64,000 nucleotides of DNA from Bacteroidales bacterium (GCA_045606385.1 JAZURX010000068.1:7659-71658), one strand, 5' to 3'. Counted from the first letter of the stretch, positions 40,949 through 45,213 are shown. Notes: generated by a model from the sequence alone, not told the origin. Numbers and translations: made by a program.

Positions 40949-41908
40949 ATGAAACCATACGTCATAGGAATAGATATAGGCGGTACAAATACCGTTATCG
41001 GGCTCGTCGACGCAAGAGGCAATATATTGGGAACGGACACCATAAAAACAACGGCCTATGCTATAATTGAAGAATACGTGGAAGATTTATCCTCTTCCAT
41101 AATTCGATTGATAGACCGGTGCGGTGCTAATAATAAAATTGCAGGAATAGGTATCGGTGCCCCCAATGCCAATTACTACACAGGAGTCATAGAACAAGCG
41201 GCCAACTTGCCATGGAAAGGTCCTATACCGTTAGCACGCATGCTGAATGAAAAAACAGATATTCCCGTAGCAATGACCAACGATGCCAACGCTGCTGCCA
41301 TCGGAGAAATGACGTATGGTGCTGCTCGTGGGGTCAAAGACTTTATTATGATTACCTTAGGTACCGGTGTCGGAAGCGGGATTGTCGCCAACGGACGACT
41401 CATCTATGGTAACGACGGAAATGCCGGAGAGTTAGGTCATATCATCGTGCGTCGTGAACATGGACGCACATGCGGCTGTGGACGCAAGGGCTGCCTCGAA
41501 GCATACACATCGGCCACAGGAGTGGCTCGTACCGCACGCGAGTTTCTGGAAATTGACGATACCCCCTCTTTGTTACGAAACATTCCACCACAAAATATTA
41601 CTTCAAAAGATGTGTACGATGCTGCTATGAACGGAGACAAACTGGCAACGGAGATATTCGATTACACCGGTCGGATATTGGGAGAAGCTTTTGCCGACTT
41701 TATAGCTTTCACCGGTCCTCGAATGATTATTCTATTTGGCGGACTTACACGCGCAGGCTCGCTCATCATGAAGCCGGCAAAAGAGGCAATGGAAACTAAT
41801 TTACTCTCGATATACAAAGGAAAAACCGAAATTGTATTCTCCCAACTCAACGAAGCCGATGCTGCGATCCTTGGCGCTTCGGCACTTGGCTGGGAAGTTG
41901 CCAAATAG
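40949..41908 (+). CDS. ROK family sugar kinase (glucokinase-like)
   Basis: DIGGTN phosphate-1 motif, GELGH, and the zinc motif CGCGRKGCLE. Confidence 0.88.
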   Translation: MKPYVIGIDIGGTNTVIGLVDARGNILGTDTIKTTAYAIIEEYVEDLSSSIIRLIDRCGANNKIAGIGIGAPNANYYTGVIEQAANLPWKGPIPLARMLNEKTDIPVAMTNDANAAAIGEMTYGAARGVKDFIMITLGTGVGSGIVANGRLIYGNDGNAGELGHIIVRREHGRTCGCGRKGCLEAYTSATGVARTAREFLEIDDTPSLLRNIPPQNITSKDVYDAAMNGDKLATEIFDYTGRILGEAFADFIAFTGPRMIILFGGLTRAGSLIMKPAKEAMETNLLSIYKGKTEIVFSQLNEADAAILGASALGWEVAK

Positions 41909-41947
41909 CCTGCTTTTTTGTTTACCTCAAATATAATAATTATTAGA

Positions 41948-41964
41948 TAGTTTTGCTATCTTTG
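41948..41964 (+). promoter_or_regulatory. Two adjacent -7 boxes (TAgtTTTG and TAtcTTTG) upstream of the GNAT-like/ibrAB-like operon
   Basis: tagttttg at 41948-41955 and tatctttg at 41957-41964. They imply a leader of about 105 nt. Confidence 0.45.
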
Positions 41965-42077
41965 CCGTAAACTGCGAAAATGAGGTACCTTTTCCGAAAT
42001 ATCCGGTGTAAACGCCTAAATCATAGGTACTCATCTTCGCCAAAGTTGAATTTTCACAACAAGCAAAAGATATTTGT

Positions 42078-42506
42078 ATGAAAATCGAAAAATTAGGAGG
42101 CACCACTCCCCGATTGTATGCATTGGTTGCACCTTTAGTGCTGAACGCCGCTGTTATAAGACAAAATAATAATAGCGCGTTCAAAACATCTGAACGTCAC
42201 GAATGGCTTGTGGCCATAGACGAAGACAGCGATACCGCTATAGGATTTTTCCCGATAGAACAACGCATGGGGTATATATACATCAACAACTACTACCTGC
42301 CCGTCGAATATGATAACACGTTGCTACCGGCATTTATCAAAGAGGTAAAGGCACTTTATGGTAAAGACACCCCTATCTCTGTAGTAGCACACACGCGCCA
42401 TACCGACATATTTGCAAAAAAAGGATTTGTTGTAGAAAAAGAGTGGAAGTTGTATTCGAAAATGAAATATAGCAAAGTCGATGGGAAAGCACCGGAATGT
42501 GTATGA
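42078..42506 (+). CDS. Hypothetical protein, weak GNAT-like (acetyltransferase fold) resemblance
   Basis: 142 aa. The pattern ...AIGFFPIE...YINNYYL...LLPAFIKEV... and the C-terminal FAKKGFVVEKEW resemble a GNAT core, but the Q/RxxGxG/A acetyl-CoA motif is absent. The gene overlaps the next gene by 26 nt. Confidence 0.5.
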   Translation: MKIEKLGGTTPRLYALVAPLVLNAAVIRQNNNSAFKTSERHEWLVAIDEDSDTAIGFFPIEQRMGYIYINNYYLPVEYDNTLLPAFIKEVKALYGKDTPISVVAHTRHTDIFAKKGFVVEKEWKLYSKMKYSKVDGKAPECV

Positions 42507-43785
42507 AGCGGCTTTGACGCGAATAAAAAAAATTTTTGACGACTTCGACAATATATATGTATCTTTCTCGGGAGGGAAAGACAGTGGTGTATTGCTCAAT
42601 TTATGTATAGACTATATACGCCGCAACAAATTGAATCGACGTATCGGCATATTTCACATGGACTATGAGGTACAATACAACCTCACGATGCAATATGTAG
42701 ATGAAGTACTCGCACAAAATACCGATATTATAGATGTTTATCGCGTATGCGTCCCTTTCAAAGTCCCCACATGTACATCTATGCACCAAAGTTATTGGCG
42801 CCCGTGGGACGATGATCAAAAAGACATATGGGTGCGCAAAATGCCCGAAAAATCATACACAAAAGATTTCTTCCCATTCTACACCGAAGAGATGTGGGAT
42901 TACGATTTTCAAACACAATTTGCCGAGTGGATGCATCATCGTTACAATGCCTCGCGCACTTGTTGCTTGGTAGGGATACGTACTCAAGAGAGTTTCAACC
43001 GATGGCGAGCTATTCACAGTGACCGCAATTATTGTTGCTATGAGCACTATAAATGGACACGCAGAATAGCAGAAAACGTATACAACGCCTATCCTATCTA
43101 CGACTGGAAAACAACCGATATATGGGTTGCAAATGGCAAATTCGGATGGAGCTACAATCACCTCTACGATCTCTATTATCAAGCAGGCGTTCCTCTTGAA
43201 AAACAACGTGTCGCAAGTCCCTTTATTTCTGCTGCCGTACCCAGTTTATCGCTCTATCGGGTCATAGACCCACAGATGTGGGGAAAAATGATAAGCCGCG
43301 TAAATGGCGTAAACTTTGCCAATATATATGGCGACACTACTGCCATGGGATGGTACTCGGTAAAATTACCAAAGGGGTTGACTTGGGAAAAATATATGCA
43401 TTTCTTATTGGATACACTACCGAGGGAAATACGCGAAGGCTATCTCGAAAAATTAAGTACAAGCATCAATTTTTGGCGCACACGAGGGGGTGTACTTGCC
43501 GAGTCGACCATCGAAAAGCTTCGCAACATGGGCATAAAGATAGAAGTGGGCGAATCCTCTTCATATCGTACAGAAAAAAAACCGGTACGCATGGAATACC
43601 TCGATGACATAGACATCGACGAGTTTAGAGAAATTCCTACATTCAAACGCATGTGTATTTGTATACTCAAAAACGACCACACCTGCAAATATATGGGATT
43701 TGCCGCAACCAAAGCCGATAAAGAGCGTCGCGAACGCGTAATGAGTAAGTATAAGAGCTATCTTGAAGGAAATGGAAATGAATAA
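42481..43785 (+). CDS. IbrA-like PP-loop ATP pyrophosphatase (phosphoadenosine phosphosulfate reductase family, with extended C-terminal domain)
   Basis: N-terminal NVYEAALTRIKKIFDDFDNIYVSFSGGKDSGVLL carries the SGGxDS PP-loop. At 434 aa the protein has a long C-terminal extension, as in IbrA/DUF3440-type proteins. Confidence 0.85.
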   Translation: MGKHRNVYEAALTRIKKIFDDFDNIYVSFSGGKDSGVLLNLCIDYIRRNKLNRRIGIFHMDYEVQYNLTMQYVDEVLAQNTDIIDVYRVCVPFKVPTCTSMHQSYWRPWDDDQKDIWVRKMPEKSYTKDFFPFYTEEMWDYDFQTQFAEWMHHRYNASRTCCLVGIRTQESFNRWRAIHSDRNYCCYEHYKWTRRIAENVYNAYPIYDWKTTDIWVANGKFGWSYNHLYDLYYQAGVPLEKQRVASPFISAAVPSLSLYRVIDPQMWGKMISRVNGVNFANIYGDTTAMGWYSVKLPKGLTWEKYMHFLLDTLPREIREGYLEKLSTSINFWRTRGGVLAESTIEKLRNMGIKIEVGESSSYRTEKKPVRMEYLDDIDIDEFREIPTFKRMCICILKNDHTCKYMGFAATKADKERRERVMSKYKSYLEGNGNE

Positions 43786-44296
43786 TAAAGAACGTTACAA
43801 AAGCCCCGTATATAACGTGGTAGCTGTACCTATTGACAAAGTAAAAGCCAACGCCTATAACCCCAATTTCGTGGCACCGCCCGAAATGAAATTACTGGAA
43901 ATCTCGATATGGGAAGATGGCTATACCATGCCTTGCGTGTGCTATTACGACGCCGAAAAAGATATTTACGAACTTGTCGATGGCTATCACCGCTATACCG
44001 TACTGAAAACATCGCGACGTATATATGAACGCGAACATGGATTACTGCCGGTAGTCGTTATCGACAAAGATATGTCGAATCGCATGGCATCGACCATACG
44101 ACACAATAGAGCCCGTGGCACGCACAACGTCGAATTGATGAGTGAAATTGTTACCGAACTTTCCAAGGCCGGTATGTCCGACGCATGGATTTTGCGCAAC
44201 ATCGGTATGGACAAAGATGAACTGTTGCGACTGAAACAAATTACAGGTATAGCCGAATTATTTGCCAACAAAGATTTCAGTATTGCCGACGATTAA
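43772..44296 (+). CDS. IbrB-like ParB/sulfiredoxin N-terminal domain protein
   Basis: NPNFVAPPEMKLLEISIWEDGYTMP...LVDGYHRYT...IRHNRARGTH are typical ParB-N/Srx fold motifs. ATG starts at 43772 or 43778 overlap the upstream stop codon. Confidence 0.8.
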   Translation: MEMNNKERYKSPVYNVVAVPIDKVKANAYNPNFVAPPEMKLLEISIWEDGYTMPCVCYYDAEKDIYELVDGYHRYTVLKTSRRIYEREHGLLPVVVIDKDMSNRMASTIRHNRARGTHNVELMSEIVTELSKAGMSDAWILRNIGMDKDELLRLKQITGIAELFANKDFSIADD

Positions 44297-44301
44297 TCGG
44301 G

Positions 44302-45213
44302 TTACTGCAAACGCAACTCCATACCTGCAACAGGCACATTCTCCTCGGAGATATTGTTTCGTTTTATCAATTTTTTCAATTTTACGCCATATTTCTGCGA
44401 AACATCGTGTAGAGACTCTCCTGCCGATAATACATGTATAGTATTCGGCTTTTGAGCCTTACGGCGTTTGGCTTTCACATATATAATATCGCCCGGTTGC
44501 AATACATAGCCCCGAGGAAAATCATTGAATCGACGCACCTGATAACGATATAATTCAAACTCGCGAGCTATATATTTAATTTTATCGCCTTCACGTGCCA
44601 CAATGTAAGGTAACCCCCATTGTGAAAGAAGATCATGATACTCATATTCTTTGGGCAATCGAGGCATGCTTTTGCCATCATATCGATGCAGTCCATAGAG
44701 TTCAATTGTCTGTATCAACTTACTTGCATATGCTTTATCAGTCGCATACCCACAACGCTTGAGCCCATGAGCCCACCCTTTATAATCGGTCACATCGAGT
44801 TTGAAAAGCACATCGTACCGCGAACTCTTGGTAAGAAACAACGCATGGTCTTCATATGAATATTTTGGATTTTTATATTTTCGAAAACATTCCCCCTTCT
44901 CATCATCGTCATGATATACTTTATCGCCTTCCCACGAATTATGACATTTTATCCCGAAATGATTGTTCGATTTTTTTGCCAATTCACTTGTCCCCGCTGC
45001 CGACTCGATAAGCCCCTGTGCCAGAGTGATACTTGCCGGTATTTTATACTTTCGCTGATGCTCCATGGCAATATCTTTATACTTACGTATATAATCGAGA
45101 TATATAGGATTTTTGTTTTGTCCCAACATTATTGCCGATGACAACAATAGAATACAAACGATACTGTTTTTGAATGTGCACATAAATAGACTTTTTATAG
45201 ATAAAAGATTCAT
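44302..45213 (-). CDS. Peptidoglycan hydrolase: GH73 N-acetylglucosaminidase domain plus two LysM repeats
   Basis: LAQGLIESAAGTSELAKKSNNHFGIK is the GH73 catalytic region. The C-terminus carries LysM-like repeats (YIAREGDKIKYIAREF..., HVLSAGESLHDVSQKYGV...). Confidence 0.85.
   Translation of the reverse strand: MNLLSIKSLFMCTFKNSIVCILLLSSAIMLGQNKNPIYLDYIRKYKDIAMEHQRKYKIPASITLAQGLIESAAGTSELAKKSNNHFGIKCHNSWEGDKVYHDDDEKGECFRKYKNPKYSYEDHALFLTKSSRYDVLFKLDVTDYKGWAHGLKRCGYATDKAYASKLIQTIELYGLHRYDGKSMPRLPKEYEYHDLLSQWGLPYIVAREGDKIKYIAREFELYRYQVRRFNDFPRGYVLQPGDIIYVKAKRRKAQKPNTIHVLSAGESLHDVSQKYGVKLKKLIKRNNISEENVPVAGMELRLQ

Follow-up and report, generated by a model that had tools for sequence, protein, structure and literature searches.

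The 64,000-nucleotide (nt) window analysed here, a stretch of the genome of a Bacteroidales bacterium (GCA_045606385.1, JAZURX010000068.1:7659-71658), carries on its plus strand, at 42078-44296, three overlapping genes (open reading frames, ORFs) in the order ORF1 - IbrA - IbrB. The second and third genes encode homologues of the PP-loop protein IbrA/YbdN and of the ParB-like protein IbrB/YbdM, whereas the first encodes a previously unnamed protein that is a third partner of the pair and, judging from its structural model, has the GNAT fold. The finding, then, is a three-component form of a known, mechanistically unsolved gene pair; we count this form as new because no earlier description of the GNAT partner was found. 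A first-pass annotation made from the sequence alone had described three plus-strand ORFs that are coupled by overlaps and preceded by two adjacent TAnnTTTG boxes; its coordinates, the 26-nt overlap of the first two genes, the alternative starts of the third gene within the end of the second and the presence of both boxes are all reproduced here. The features are as follows.

42078..42506, plus strand: ORF1, predicted GNAT-fold protein without a coenzyme A (CoA) pyrophosphate-binding loop; 142 amino acids, ATG start
42481..43785, plus strand: IbrA/YbdN homologue; 434 amino acids, ATG start
43772..44296, plus strand: IbrB/YbdM homologue; 174 amino acids, start at ATG 43772 or ATG 43778
42481..42506, plus strand: overlap of the ORF1 stop and the IbrA start, 26 nt; translational coupling
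43772..43785, plus strand: overlap at the IbrA-IbrB junction, 14 nt with IbrB beginning at 43772 or 8 nt with IbrB beginning at 43778
41948..41964, plus strand: two adjacent boxes of the Bacteroidetes -7 type, TAGTTTTG and TATCTTTG, matching TAnnTTTG; putative promoter

The third ORF opens at a TTG codon (43763), and it is the N-termini of IbrB homologues that point to one of the two in-frame ATGs as the actual start. The TAnnTTTG boxes (41948-41955 and 41957-41964) lie approximately 115-130 nt 5' of ORF1. This motif is enriched throughout the window (90 matches against 57 +/- 7 expected), and a copy is found no more than 200 nt 5' of ORF1 in 47 of 63 related loci, compared with 10% of random 200-nt stretches; therefore, ORF1 is taken to be the first gene of the operon.

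Conservation of the trio in Bacteroidales

A scan of one genome per species with exact peptide patterns retrieved 80 loci, a set whose counts are not a prevalence, spanning the Barnesiellaceae, Odoribacteraceae, Tannerellaceae, Rikenellaceae, Prevotellaceae, Bacteroidaceae, Muribaculaceae and Dysgonomonadaceae. ORF1 lies directly 5' of IbrA in 78 of the 80 loci, IbrB directly 3' of IbrA also in 78, and the full trio is present in 77; the remaining three are two contig ends and one solitary IbrA. The members of the trio share one strand in the related loci, and their junctions are tight, with ORF1 and IbrA overlapping or separated by no more than 6 nt in all 65 loci measured and IbrA and IbrB overlapping or separated by no more than 9 nt in 69 of 70. 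The trio is, beyond chance, an obligate three-gene unit that extends across Bacteroidales. The association of ORF1 with the pair, which the first-pass annotation had proposed, holds in related genomes, and no known pathway that would explain the pair co-occurs with the trio.

A conserved fourth member of the unit is rejected. When all flanking ORFs of the 80 loci were clustered, the next most frequent neighbour occurred in at most eight loci, all of them close relatives of the window. No DndA, DndD, DndE or cysteine desulfurase is encoded nearby in any of the 80 loci, and no transporter, other biosynthetic, immunity, nuclease, reader or effector gene recurs beside the trio in this set. Synteny of the flanks (glucosaminidase-LysM, cytidine deaminase, DnaX) is confined to the close relatives of the window, among which identity amounts to 82-94% for IbrB, 74-88% for IbrA, 67-77% for DnaX and 54-78% for ORF1. 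Thus, in these relatives, IbrB and IbrA are more conserved than the flanking DnaX, and ORF1 evolves faster. Among the carriers are Alistipes putredinis, A. communis, A. shahii, A. indistinctus, Barnesiella intestinihominis, Bacteroides stercoris, Butyricimonas virosa, Parabacteroides goldsteinii and P. distasonis, and the labels that NCBI attaches to the members of the trio are 'hypothetical', 'DUF3440 domain-containing' and 'ParB/RepB/Spo0J'.

IbrA stands alone in just one of the 80 loci (L074, 1986-3278), in a Bacteroides metagenome-assembled genome (MAG). The homologue encoded there is intact (430 amino acids, 62% identity), and its gene adjoins a prolyl-tRNA-synthetase-like gene and a sulfatase-like gene instead of ORF1 and IbrB. 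In a Rikenellaceae-like MAG, a 2-nt deletion has joined ORF1 and IbrA in frame into a single protein of 562 amino acids (P0064; L112, 1501-3189), at a junction where the relatives of this locus have the two genes overlapping at ATGA. The fusion was seen once and might reflect faulty assembly; it is the only clean ORF1::IbrA fusion among the long IbrA database proteins checked. Other over-long 'IbrA' proteins turned out not to be fusions, two of them (P0031, P0083) containing internal tandem duplications of about 100 residues and two (P0095, P0224) being frameshifted read-throughs, and P0110 is an artefact, an IbrA::IbrB chimera that lacks the IbrB N-terminus.

In the window itself, the genes around the trio, verified with Pfam, encode GH95 and GH36 proteins, a ROK kinase, the glucosaminidase-LysM protein, cytidine deaminase, DnaX and a GH3 protein, which agrees with the housekeeping neighbourhood described in the first-pass annotation, and the guanine-plus-cytosine (GC) content of the trio (0.42-0.44) equals that of the window (0.43). 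A phage origin of the locus is rejected because of these housekeeping flanks, the native GC content and the lack of a PHROG match for ORF1. The module in Bacteroidales looks like a long-resident chromosomal operon and not like a mobile defence island. One copy is found on a sequence deposited as 'Parabacteroides distasonis plasmid 10' (L109; NZ_OY725755.1, 93 kb, typed as non-mobilizable), amid genes for GH92, RND efflux and thiazole synthase; this may be a piece of chromosome that was submitted under the name of a plasmid.

Several minor features of the locus complete its description. IbrB and the convergent glucosaminidase-LysM gene end at 44296 and 44302, with the stops 5 nt apart, and no terminator-like hairpin was detected between the two genes. 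Across the promoter region and the beginning of ORF1 runs a minus-strand ORF of 85 amino acids with a TTG start (41927-42184), which is in all likelihood spurious, given its overlap with the 5' leader and with the conserved start of ORF1. The Rfam scan of 41800-44500 at E <= 1 returned no RNA family and, accordingly, no riboswitch clue to any ligand.

The three proteins and the systems they resemble

IbrA consists of a PP-loop domain with the PAPS-reductase fold (approximately residues 1-235) and a DUF3440 half (approximately residues 236-434), which match, respectively, PF01507 (PAPS_reduct; 5e-11, 43.3 bits against a cut-off of 22.5) and PF11922 (DUF3440; 3e-91, 304.4 bits against a cut-off of 25). 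The protein is 32% identical to YbdN of Escherichia coli K-12 over residues 6-427 (E 8e-68), 31% identical to IbrA of phage PhiR5_2 and 56% identical to a protein annotated as IbrA in Streptococcus phage CHPC877, and it matches the phage family phrog_2302 at 9e-105. The identification of the middle protein as an IbrA-like one, with an SGGxDS PP-loop and a long C-terminal extension, is borne out by the two Pfam matches and the homology with YbdN. The motif SFSGGKDS occupies residues 28-35, and the PP-loop itself (S30-G31-G32-K33-D34-S35) is invariant in 83 sequences as well as in 13 very diverse ones, so that the conservation in orthologues on which the earlier proposal relied is confirmed. In these 13 proteins, which come from Bacteroidales, four phages and E. 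coli, D61/E63 and G165-x-R167-x-x-E170-S171 are invariant along with SGGKDS, and so are a YPIYDW block, an NxLYxLxYxAG block, RVASPF and several residues of DUF3440. No cysteine is invariant across the Bacteroidales, phage and E. coli members, either in the 13 diverse sequences or in the 83 used for confirmation.

The AlphaFold2 model of IbrA has a predicted local distance difference test score (pLDDT) of 82. In a whole-chain Foldseek search, the N-terminal ~230 residues match flavin mononucleotide (FMN) adenylyltransferase, reductases of phosphoadenylyl sulfate (PAPS) and adenylyl sulfate (APS), and CysD (E ~3e-7, probability 1.0); only this domain was matched, and the DUF3440 half found no whole-chain match in the PDB. 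The nearest folds thus are those of adenylyl-transfer or adenylyl-binding enzymes. Given the invariant motifs and the fold resembling those of FMN adenylyltransferase, CysH and CysD, IbrA is predicted to be an active ATP pyrophosphatase or adenylyltransferase. Residues 1-~235 share the fold of CysH, CysD and FMN adenylyltransferase (Fad1), and IbrA differs from these enzymes in the combination of a canonical SGGKDS PP-loop, the lack of a conserved C-terminal catalytic cysteine and the presence of the 200-residue DUF3440 half. Despite the common annotation, IbrA is not a CysH-type reductase because that catalytic cysteine is missing: the score against the PAPS reductase model NF002537 is 15.4 bits against a cut-off of 154, and no invariant cysteine of the kind found in an ECGLH-type motif is present.

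The likeness to DndC has to be considered along with that of IbrB to DndB since, in both pairs, a PAPS-reductase-like PP-loop ATP pyrophosphatase is accompanied by a ParB-superfamily protein with a DGxHR-type motif. However, DndC contains three conserved cysteines for a 4Fe-4S cluster plus a cysteine dyad (PMC10853773), whereas IbrA has no invariant cysteines for either, and DUF3440 is absent from DndC. The identification of IbrA as DndC is rejected, with a score against TIGR03183 of 21.7 bits compared to a cut-off of 290.4 and PADLOC matches to DndC that are partial. Assignment to any PADLOC defence system fails in the same manner, with only partial matches of IbrA to DndC and BrxP and none for ORF1 or IbrB. 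The first-pass annotation had argued that the locus is not a classical Dnd system, and the low DndC score and the lack of an invariant cysteine agree with that view.

IbrB is homologous over its whole length to YbdM (49% identity, E 1e-51), shows 64% identity to a protein annotated as IbrB in Streptococcus phage CHPC877 and matches phrog_2159 at 8e-76 and, additionally, phrog_498, a family annotated as DNA methyltransferase. It contains DGYHRYT and RHNRARGTH, and the motifs of its ParB/Srx N-terminal domain are NPN, DG[YF]HR and STIRHNRARG; STIRHNRARG and LRLKQ are invariant in 12 diverse homologues. Both the assignment to an IbrB-like family with ParB-N/sulfiredoxin motifs and the conservation of these motifs in orthologues are thereby upheld. 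The match of IbrB to the Pfam family ParB_N (PF02195) scores 18.9 bits, below the cut-off of 26.3, yet the profile of the 12 homologues retrieves Noc (7ol9) at E 7e-7 and ParB at E 3e-5, followed, more weakly, by SbnI (E 0.026) and the free serine kinase SerK (E 0.25). Since the profile finds the N-domains of Noc and ParB and the Pfam score remains below the cut-off, IbrB belongs to the ParB superfamily but lies outside the canonical ParB_N family. C-terminal to the ParB/Srx domain lies a conserved helical part (MSDxWI...GMDxDELLRLKQ), which may be read as a ParB-type helix-turn-helix, and this C-terminal region is nearly identical across Bacteroidales, Streptococcus phages and E. coli. The protein ends there, at 174 amino acids.

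In likeness to the CTP-dependent DNA clamps (ParB, Noc and KorB), the N-domain of IbrB aligns to Box I-II of Noc and ParB and a helical part comes after it. Nevertheless, IbrB differs from these proteins in its size, in the presence of DG[YF]HR in place of GERR, and in the absence of a C-terminal dimerisation domain, a parS-like site and ParA. Accordingly, a canonical ParB was tried and rejected: Box II of the window protein is DGYHR and not GERR, the dimerisation domain is missing, no ParA is encoded nearby, and there is no repeated upstream site.

ORF1 has no match in Pfam or NCBIfam at E <= 1, nor in PADLOC or PHROG. Nevertheless, it is a real gene because E-values in tblastn searches among related loci reach 1e-75 and the AlphaFold2 model, built from an alignment of 26 homologues, is confident (pLDDT 91, predicted template-modelling score 0.85). 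The best Foldseek match of this model in the PDB is ElaA (5z6n; E 7e-8, template-modelling (TM) score 0.71), and PA0115, YjcF and GCN5 match as well, with probability 1.0 and TM scores of approximately 0.7 (0.69-0.71 for ElaA, PA0115 and YjcF). The model thus indicates that ORF1 is a GNAT-fold protein. The motif A signature of the CoA loop, Q/RxxGxG/A, is absent from the beta4-alpha3 segment in all 67 full-length representatives of the family (0/67). Together, the Foldseek matches and the missing motif support the description of the protein, in the first-pass annotation, as a GNAT-like core lacking the acetyl-CoA loop; we propose that this canonical loop was lost in Bacteroidales. ORF1 shares the alpha/beta fold and a similar size with ElaA, PA0115 and YjcF, whereas its conserved surface is not motif A but the N-terminal LVAPLVM...RQNNNYPFKT...W segment and the NNYY strand. 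The family is small, with 350 members at E <= 0.001 in a profile search of 1.84 billion representative proteins. At the sequence level, its membership in the GNAT superfamily follows only indirectly, through a Ralstonia protein described below that passes PF00583.

Compared with the E. coli IbrA/IbrB and the K-12 paralogues YbdN/YbdM, the locus in the window shows the same succession of a PAPS_reduct-DUF3440 protein and a ParB-like one, encoded by genes with overlapping stop and start, along with full-length homology and identical invariant motifs. It differs by an additional, conserved first gene for the GNAT-fold protein, found neither in ybdNM nor in the inspected ibrAB loci, and by its setting, which is chromosomal, syntenic within the family, outside any island or prophage and free of an adjoining LysR (CitR) gene. 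IbrA and IbrB of Bacteroidales resemble those of Firmicutes phages (56-58% and 64%) more than those of E. coli.

Third partners outside Bacteroidales

Elsewhere, the IbrA/IbrB core is strongly tied to phages and plasmids, a point absent from the first-pass annotation. IbrA matches occur in 225 phage records, 41 of them full-length, and in 727 plasmid records (323 from Klebsiella, 190 from Escherichia, 129 from Ralstonia), and, of the 5426 complete E. coli genomes, 1930 (36%) have an ibrAB locus of the E. coli type. Phage copies are located in early, replication or recombination regions, near genes for RecT, ERF, DnaB and N6/N4 methylases. ORF1, by contrast with this core, was found in only 11 of the 2.9 million IMG/VR contigs, and in the inspected ones the trio lies at contig edges next to host-type genes. 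On one such contig, the trio is preceded by methyltransferase-like and DUF262-like ORFs (L093, 188-7024) and on another by reverse-transcriptase-like, thymidylate-synthase-like and Dam-like ORFs (L097, 1-3868), with these labels coming from reading of N-terminal sequences only. Unannotated GenBank records named 'Bacteriophage sp.' encode proteins that are 64-69% identical. The one inspected, L086 (MT835983.1, 'UNVERIFIED: Bacteriophage sp.'), was rejected as a phage: it is a Bacteroides-type chromosomal fragment without phage genes that encodes MATE efflux, aminotransferase, chromate transporter, epimerase and AddB-like proteins and is syntenic with L089.

A GNAT protein accompanies the pair in Ralstonia solanacearum as well, which the first-pass annotation likewise did not mention. 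The megaplasmid CP052117.1 (L110, 4977-7256) carries the genes in the order IbrA - 145-amino-acid protein - IbrB, with IbrA and IbrB 27% and 47% identical to the window proteins. The middle protein, annotated as 'transcriptional regulator', passes PF00583 (Acetyltransf_1) with 25.3 bits against a cut-off of 20.7 and aligns with the ORF1 family in hhalign over 117 columns (95.8% probability, E 8e-9); the label therefore looks like a mis-annotation. Unlike ORF1, the Ralstonia protein retains a CoA loop of the RGRG type. The components are the same as in the window, but the GNAT gene is in the middle of the operon rather than at its beginning; the locus looks like another GNAT-IbrAB trio, independent of the first and arranged differently. 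A Ralstonia preprint reports IbrAB and a protein with an N-acetyltransferase domain, possibly the IbrAB-linked GNAT, among the nine genes up-regulated in one mutant.

In marine phages related to Pseudoalteromonas phage XCL1123, an ectoine-synthase-like cupin (EctC-like; PF06339, 1.7e-35) directly follows IbrA, either as a separate gene of ~130 amino acids between IbrA and IbrB or fused to IbrB (~300 amino acids), the latter on three independent contigs. The sites are the following.

L103, 7310-8233: EctC-like cupin
L106, 7323-8222: EctC-like cupin
L107, 1580-2479: EctC-like cupin
L084, 5305-6235: EctC-like cupin
L105, 7304-8234: EctC-like cupin

In Firmicutes phages (Streptococcus, Lactobacillus), the stop of a gene for an SNF2-like helicase (~390-410 amino acids) overlaps the start of IbrA, within a module of five overlapping genes that encode two small proteins of no family, the helicase, IbrA and IbrB and are located between the lysis genes and the cro/anti-repressor region. 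The small proteins encoded upstream of IbrA in Streptococcus phage CHPC877 show no sequence relationship to ORF1.

L081, 2984-6768: five-gene module of Streptococcus phage CHPC877
L083, 1804-5771: five-gene module of Lactobacillus phage AQ113

The pair is found without a third partner in E. coli ybdNM, in the inspected ibrAB loci and on a Klebsiella plasmid, namely, the K. pneumoniae IncFIB plasmid pTMTA63631, where IbrA/IbrB (L111, 6962-8823) are located between the siderophore loci fecIRA and iroBCD. Third partners of IbrA/IbrB nevertheless recur and differ by lineage: a GNAT protein, an EctC-like cupin or an SNF2-like helicase.

Possible functions and their implications

So what could such a unit do? 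The reading that we tentatively prefer, at a confidence short of even, is that the trio makes up one ATP-using complex that modifies or processes nucleic acid, most probably DNA. The first-pass annotation suggested a nucleic-acid or nucleotide adenylation/modification module, and we likewise infer such a module, including the formation of the complex, its substrate and its chemistry. Under this hypothesis, IbrB would be a minimal ParB, with an NTP-binding ParB/Srx domain and a helical part, that binds nucleic acid and gates or positions the enzyme; IbrA would use ATP to adenylate a target oxygen, that of a phosphate or of a base carbonyl; and the GNAT-fold protein would bind the incoming group or the acceptor and finish the transfer. 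Because the canonical CoA loop appears to be lost, ORF1 of Bacteroidales may act on the adenylated intermediate or as a specificity subunit and not on acetyl-CoA directly.

This hypothesis is supported by the presence of the trio in 77 of the 80 loci, by the conserved overlaps and by the ORF1::IbrA fusion in one MAG. The invariance of SGGKDS and GIRxxES from Bacteroidales to phages to E. coli also supports it, as do the adenylyl-transfer or adenylyl-binding enzymes among which IbrA finds its nearest folds and the retention, in IbrB, of the equivalent of ParB Box II, DG[YF]HR, and of RHNRARG, with the CTP-binding Noc and ParB as the nearest solved relatives. The coupled SNF2-like helicase, the phage replication and recombination context and the match of IbrB to phrog_498 point to DNA. 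The notion of a tailoring partner is supported by the homologous canonical GNAT of Ralstonia and by the EctC-like cupin that stands beside IbrB or is fused to it in marine phages; the fusions would predict that ORF1 touches IbrA and that the cupin touches IbrB. By analogy, precedents are seen in DndC with DndB and in DpdA with the ParB-like ATPase DpdB (PMC10853773, PMC12839542).

Several observations weigh against a complex acting on nucleic acid, and some of them favour a different possibility, a small-molecule pathway, which we consider a serious rival even if a rather unlikely one. In that case, IbrB would be a kinase like SerK or SbnI, IbrA would adenylylate a phosphate or carboxylate, and the GNAT or cupin would handle an amino-acid-like moiety, to yield a nucleotide-conjugated metabolite, be it a signal, an antimetabolite or a cofactor-like compound. 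The best structural matches of the IbrA N-domain, FMN adenylyltransferase, CysH and CysD, are all small-molecule enzymes, and all solved relatives of this fold act on small molecules (FMN, sulfate, PAPS). The IbrB profile reaches SbnI and the free serine kinase SerK, which are small-molecule kinases, and the protein is acidic (pI 5.6). GNATs and EctC-like cupins typically are small-molecule enzymes with folds that bind amino-acid derivatives, and very high conservation in unrelated hosts would suit a universal metabolite as the substrate. Furthermore, without a restriction or reader partner, a mark on DNA has no obvious use. Conversely, the helical C-terminal part of IbrB resembles the helix-turn-helix region of ParB, and among solved proteins it stands closer to the DNA-clamping CTPases Noc and ParB than to the kinases; the SNF2-like helicase is translationally coupled upstream of IbrA in Firmicutes phages; and no transporter, other biosynthetic gene or immunity gene recurs beside the trio.

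The only recorded phenotype of the family is also awkward for a modification complex: IbrA and IbrB are said to activate expression of the prophage gene eib in E. coli, which fits a regulator equally well and tallies with the annotation 'co-activator of prophage gene expression'. In a regulatory scheme, which strikes us as clearly unlikely, IbrB would be an NTP-switched DNA-binding protein like KorB or DndB, and IbrA and the GNAT-fold protein would be ligand-sensing or co-activator subunits with little catalysis. Phage copies do adjoin cro-like and anti-repressor genes. In K-12, CitR/YbdO keeps ybdNM under tight repression, and YbdM figures among the predicted transcription factors (PMC9068703); DndB, in turn, is reported to be an ATP-dependent regulator (PMC10853773). 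However, the invariance of SGGKDS, the D/E pair and GIRxxES over very large distances argues for retained catalysis, and the near-identity of the IbrB C-terminal region in unrelated genomes would be surprising if the protein regulated genes from specific sites. A k-mer search for a conserved operator 5' of ORF1 in 63 loci recovered only AT-rich, promoter-type words, a result that speaks against a regulator and also against the complex that we prefer. Least probable of the explanations considered, and given little weight, is a conflict system, in which the trio would either defend against phages or be a counter-defence, domesticated from a phage or plasmid, that protects the cell or the element by marking or shielding DNA during infection or conjugation. 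This would account for the phage families phrog_2302 and phrog_2159 and for the many phage and plasmid records, for the accessory distribution of ibrAB in E. coli and for the weak PADLOC matches of IbrA to DndC and BrxP. It sits poorly with the Bacteroidales trio, which is embedded among housekeeping genes at the GC content of the window, lacks a nuclease, reader or effector partner and, with IbrB more conserved than DnaX, is unlike the fast-evolving, patchy defence genes; ORF1, for its part, lacks PADLOC and PHROG matches and is all but absent from viral contigs, where the inspected copies lie at edges by host-type genes.

Extending the preferred hypothesis of a nucleic-acid-modifying complex to the whole family, GNAT-IbrA-IbrB, and IbrAB in general, might constitute an unrecognised ATP-dependent nucleic-acid modification system that marks DNA or RNA with a new group, derived perhaps from an acyl compound or an amino acid. 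This system would serve phages and plasmids in takeover, gut Bacteroidales would have fixed it in the chromosome as a resident function whose GNAT subunit lacks the CoA loop, and the GNAT, cupin and SNF2 proteins would be interchangeable tailoring or delivery subunits. We regard this broader scenario as unlikely, though worth stating.

No mechanism for IbrA/IbrB, YbdN/YbdM or DUF3440 was found in the searchable literature, which offers only the repression by CitR and the 'co-activator' annotation, and the GNAT partner, the homology that links its Bacteroidales and Ralstonia forms and the fusions with the EctC-like cupin were not found described there either. In genome annotations, IbrA and IbrB are routinely mistaken for 'PAPS reductase' genes of sulfur metabolism or for 'ParB partition proteins'. 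What is added here are a GNAT-fold subunit that is obligatory in Bacteroidales and Ralstonia, an EctC-like cupin in marine phages and an SNF2-like helicase in Firmicutes phages, and these lineage-specific partners provide concrete handles on the chemistry in genetically tractable hosts. To a specialist, the finding may not be astonishing, yet the family is very widespread and offers clear experimental handles, and the carriers of the trio include abundant human-gut Bacteroidales (Alistipes, Barnesiella, Parabacteroides, Butyricimonas and Bacteroides stercoris). If the product indeed is a new nucleic-acid mark or a nucleotide metabolite, this would bear on phage-host conflict, plasmid biology and the physiology of gut commensals.

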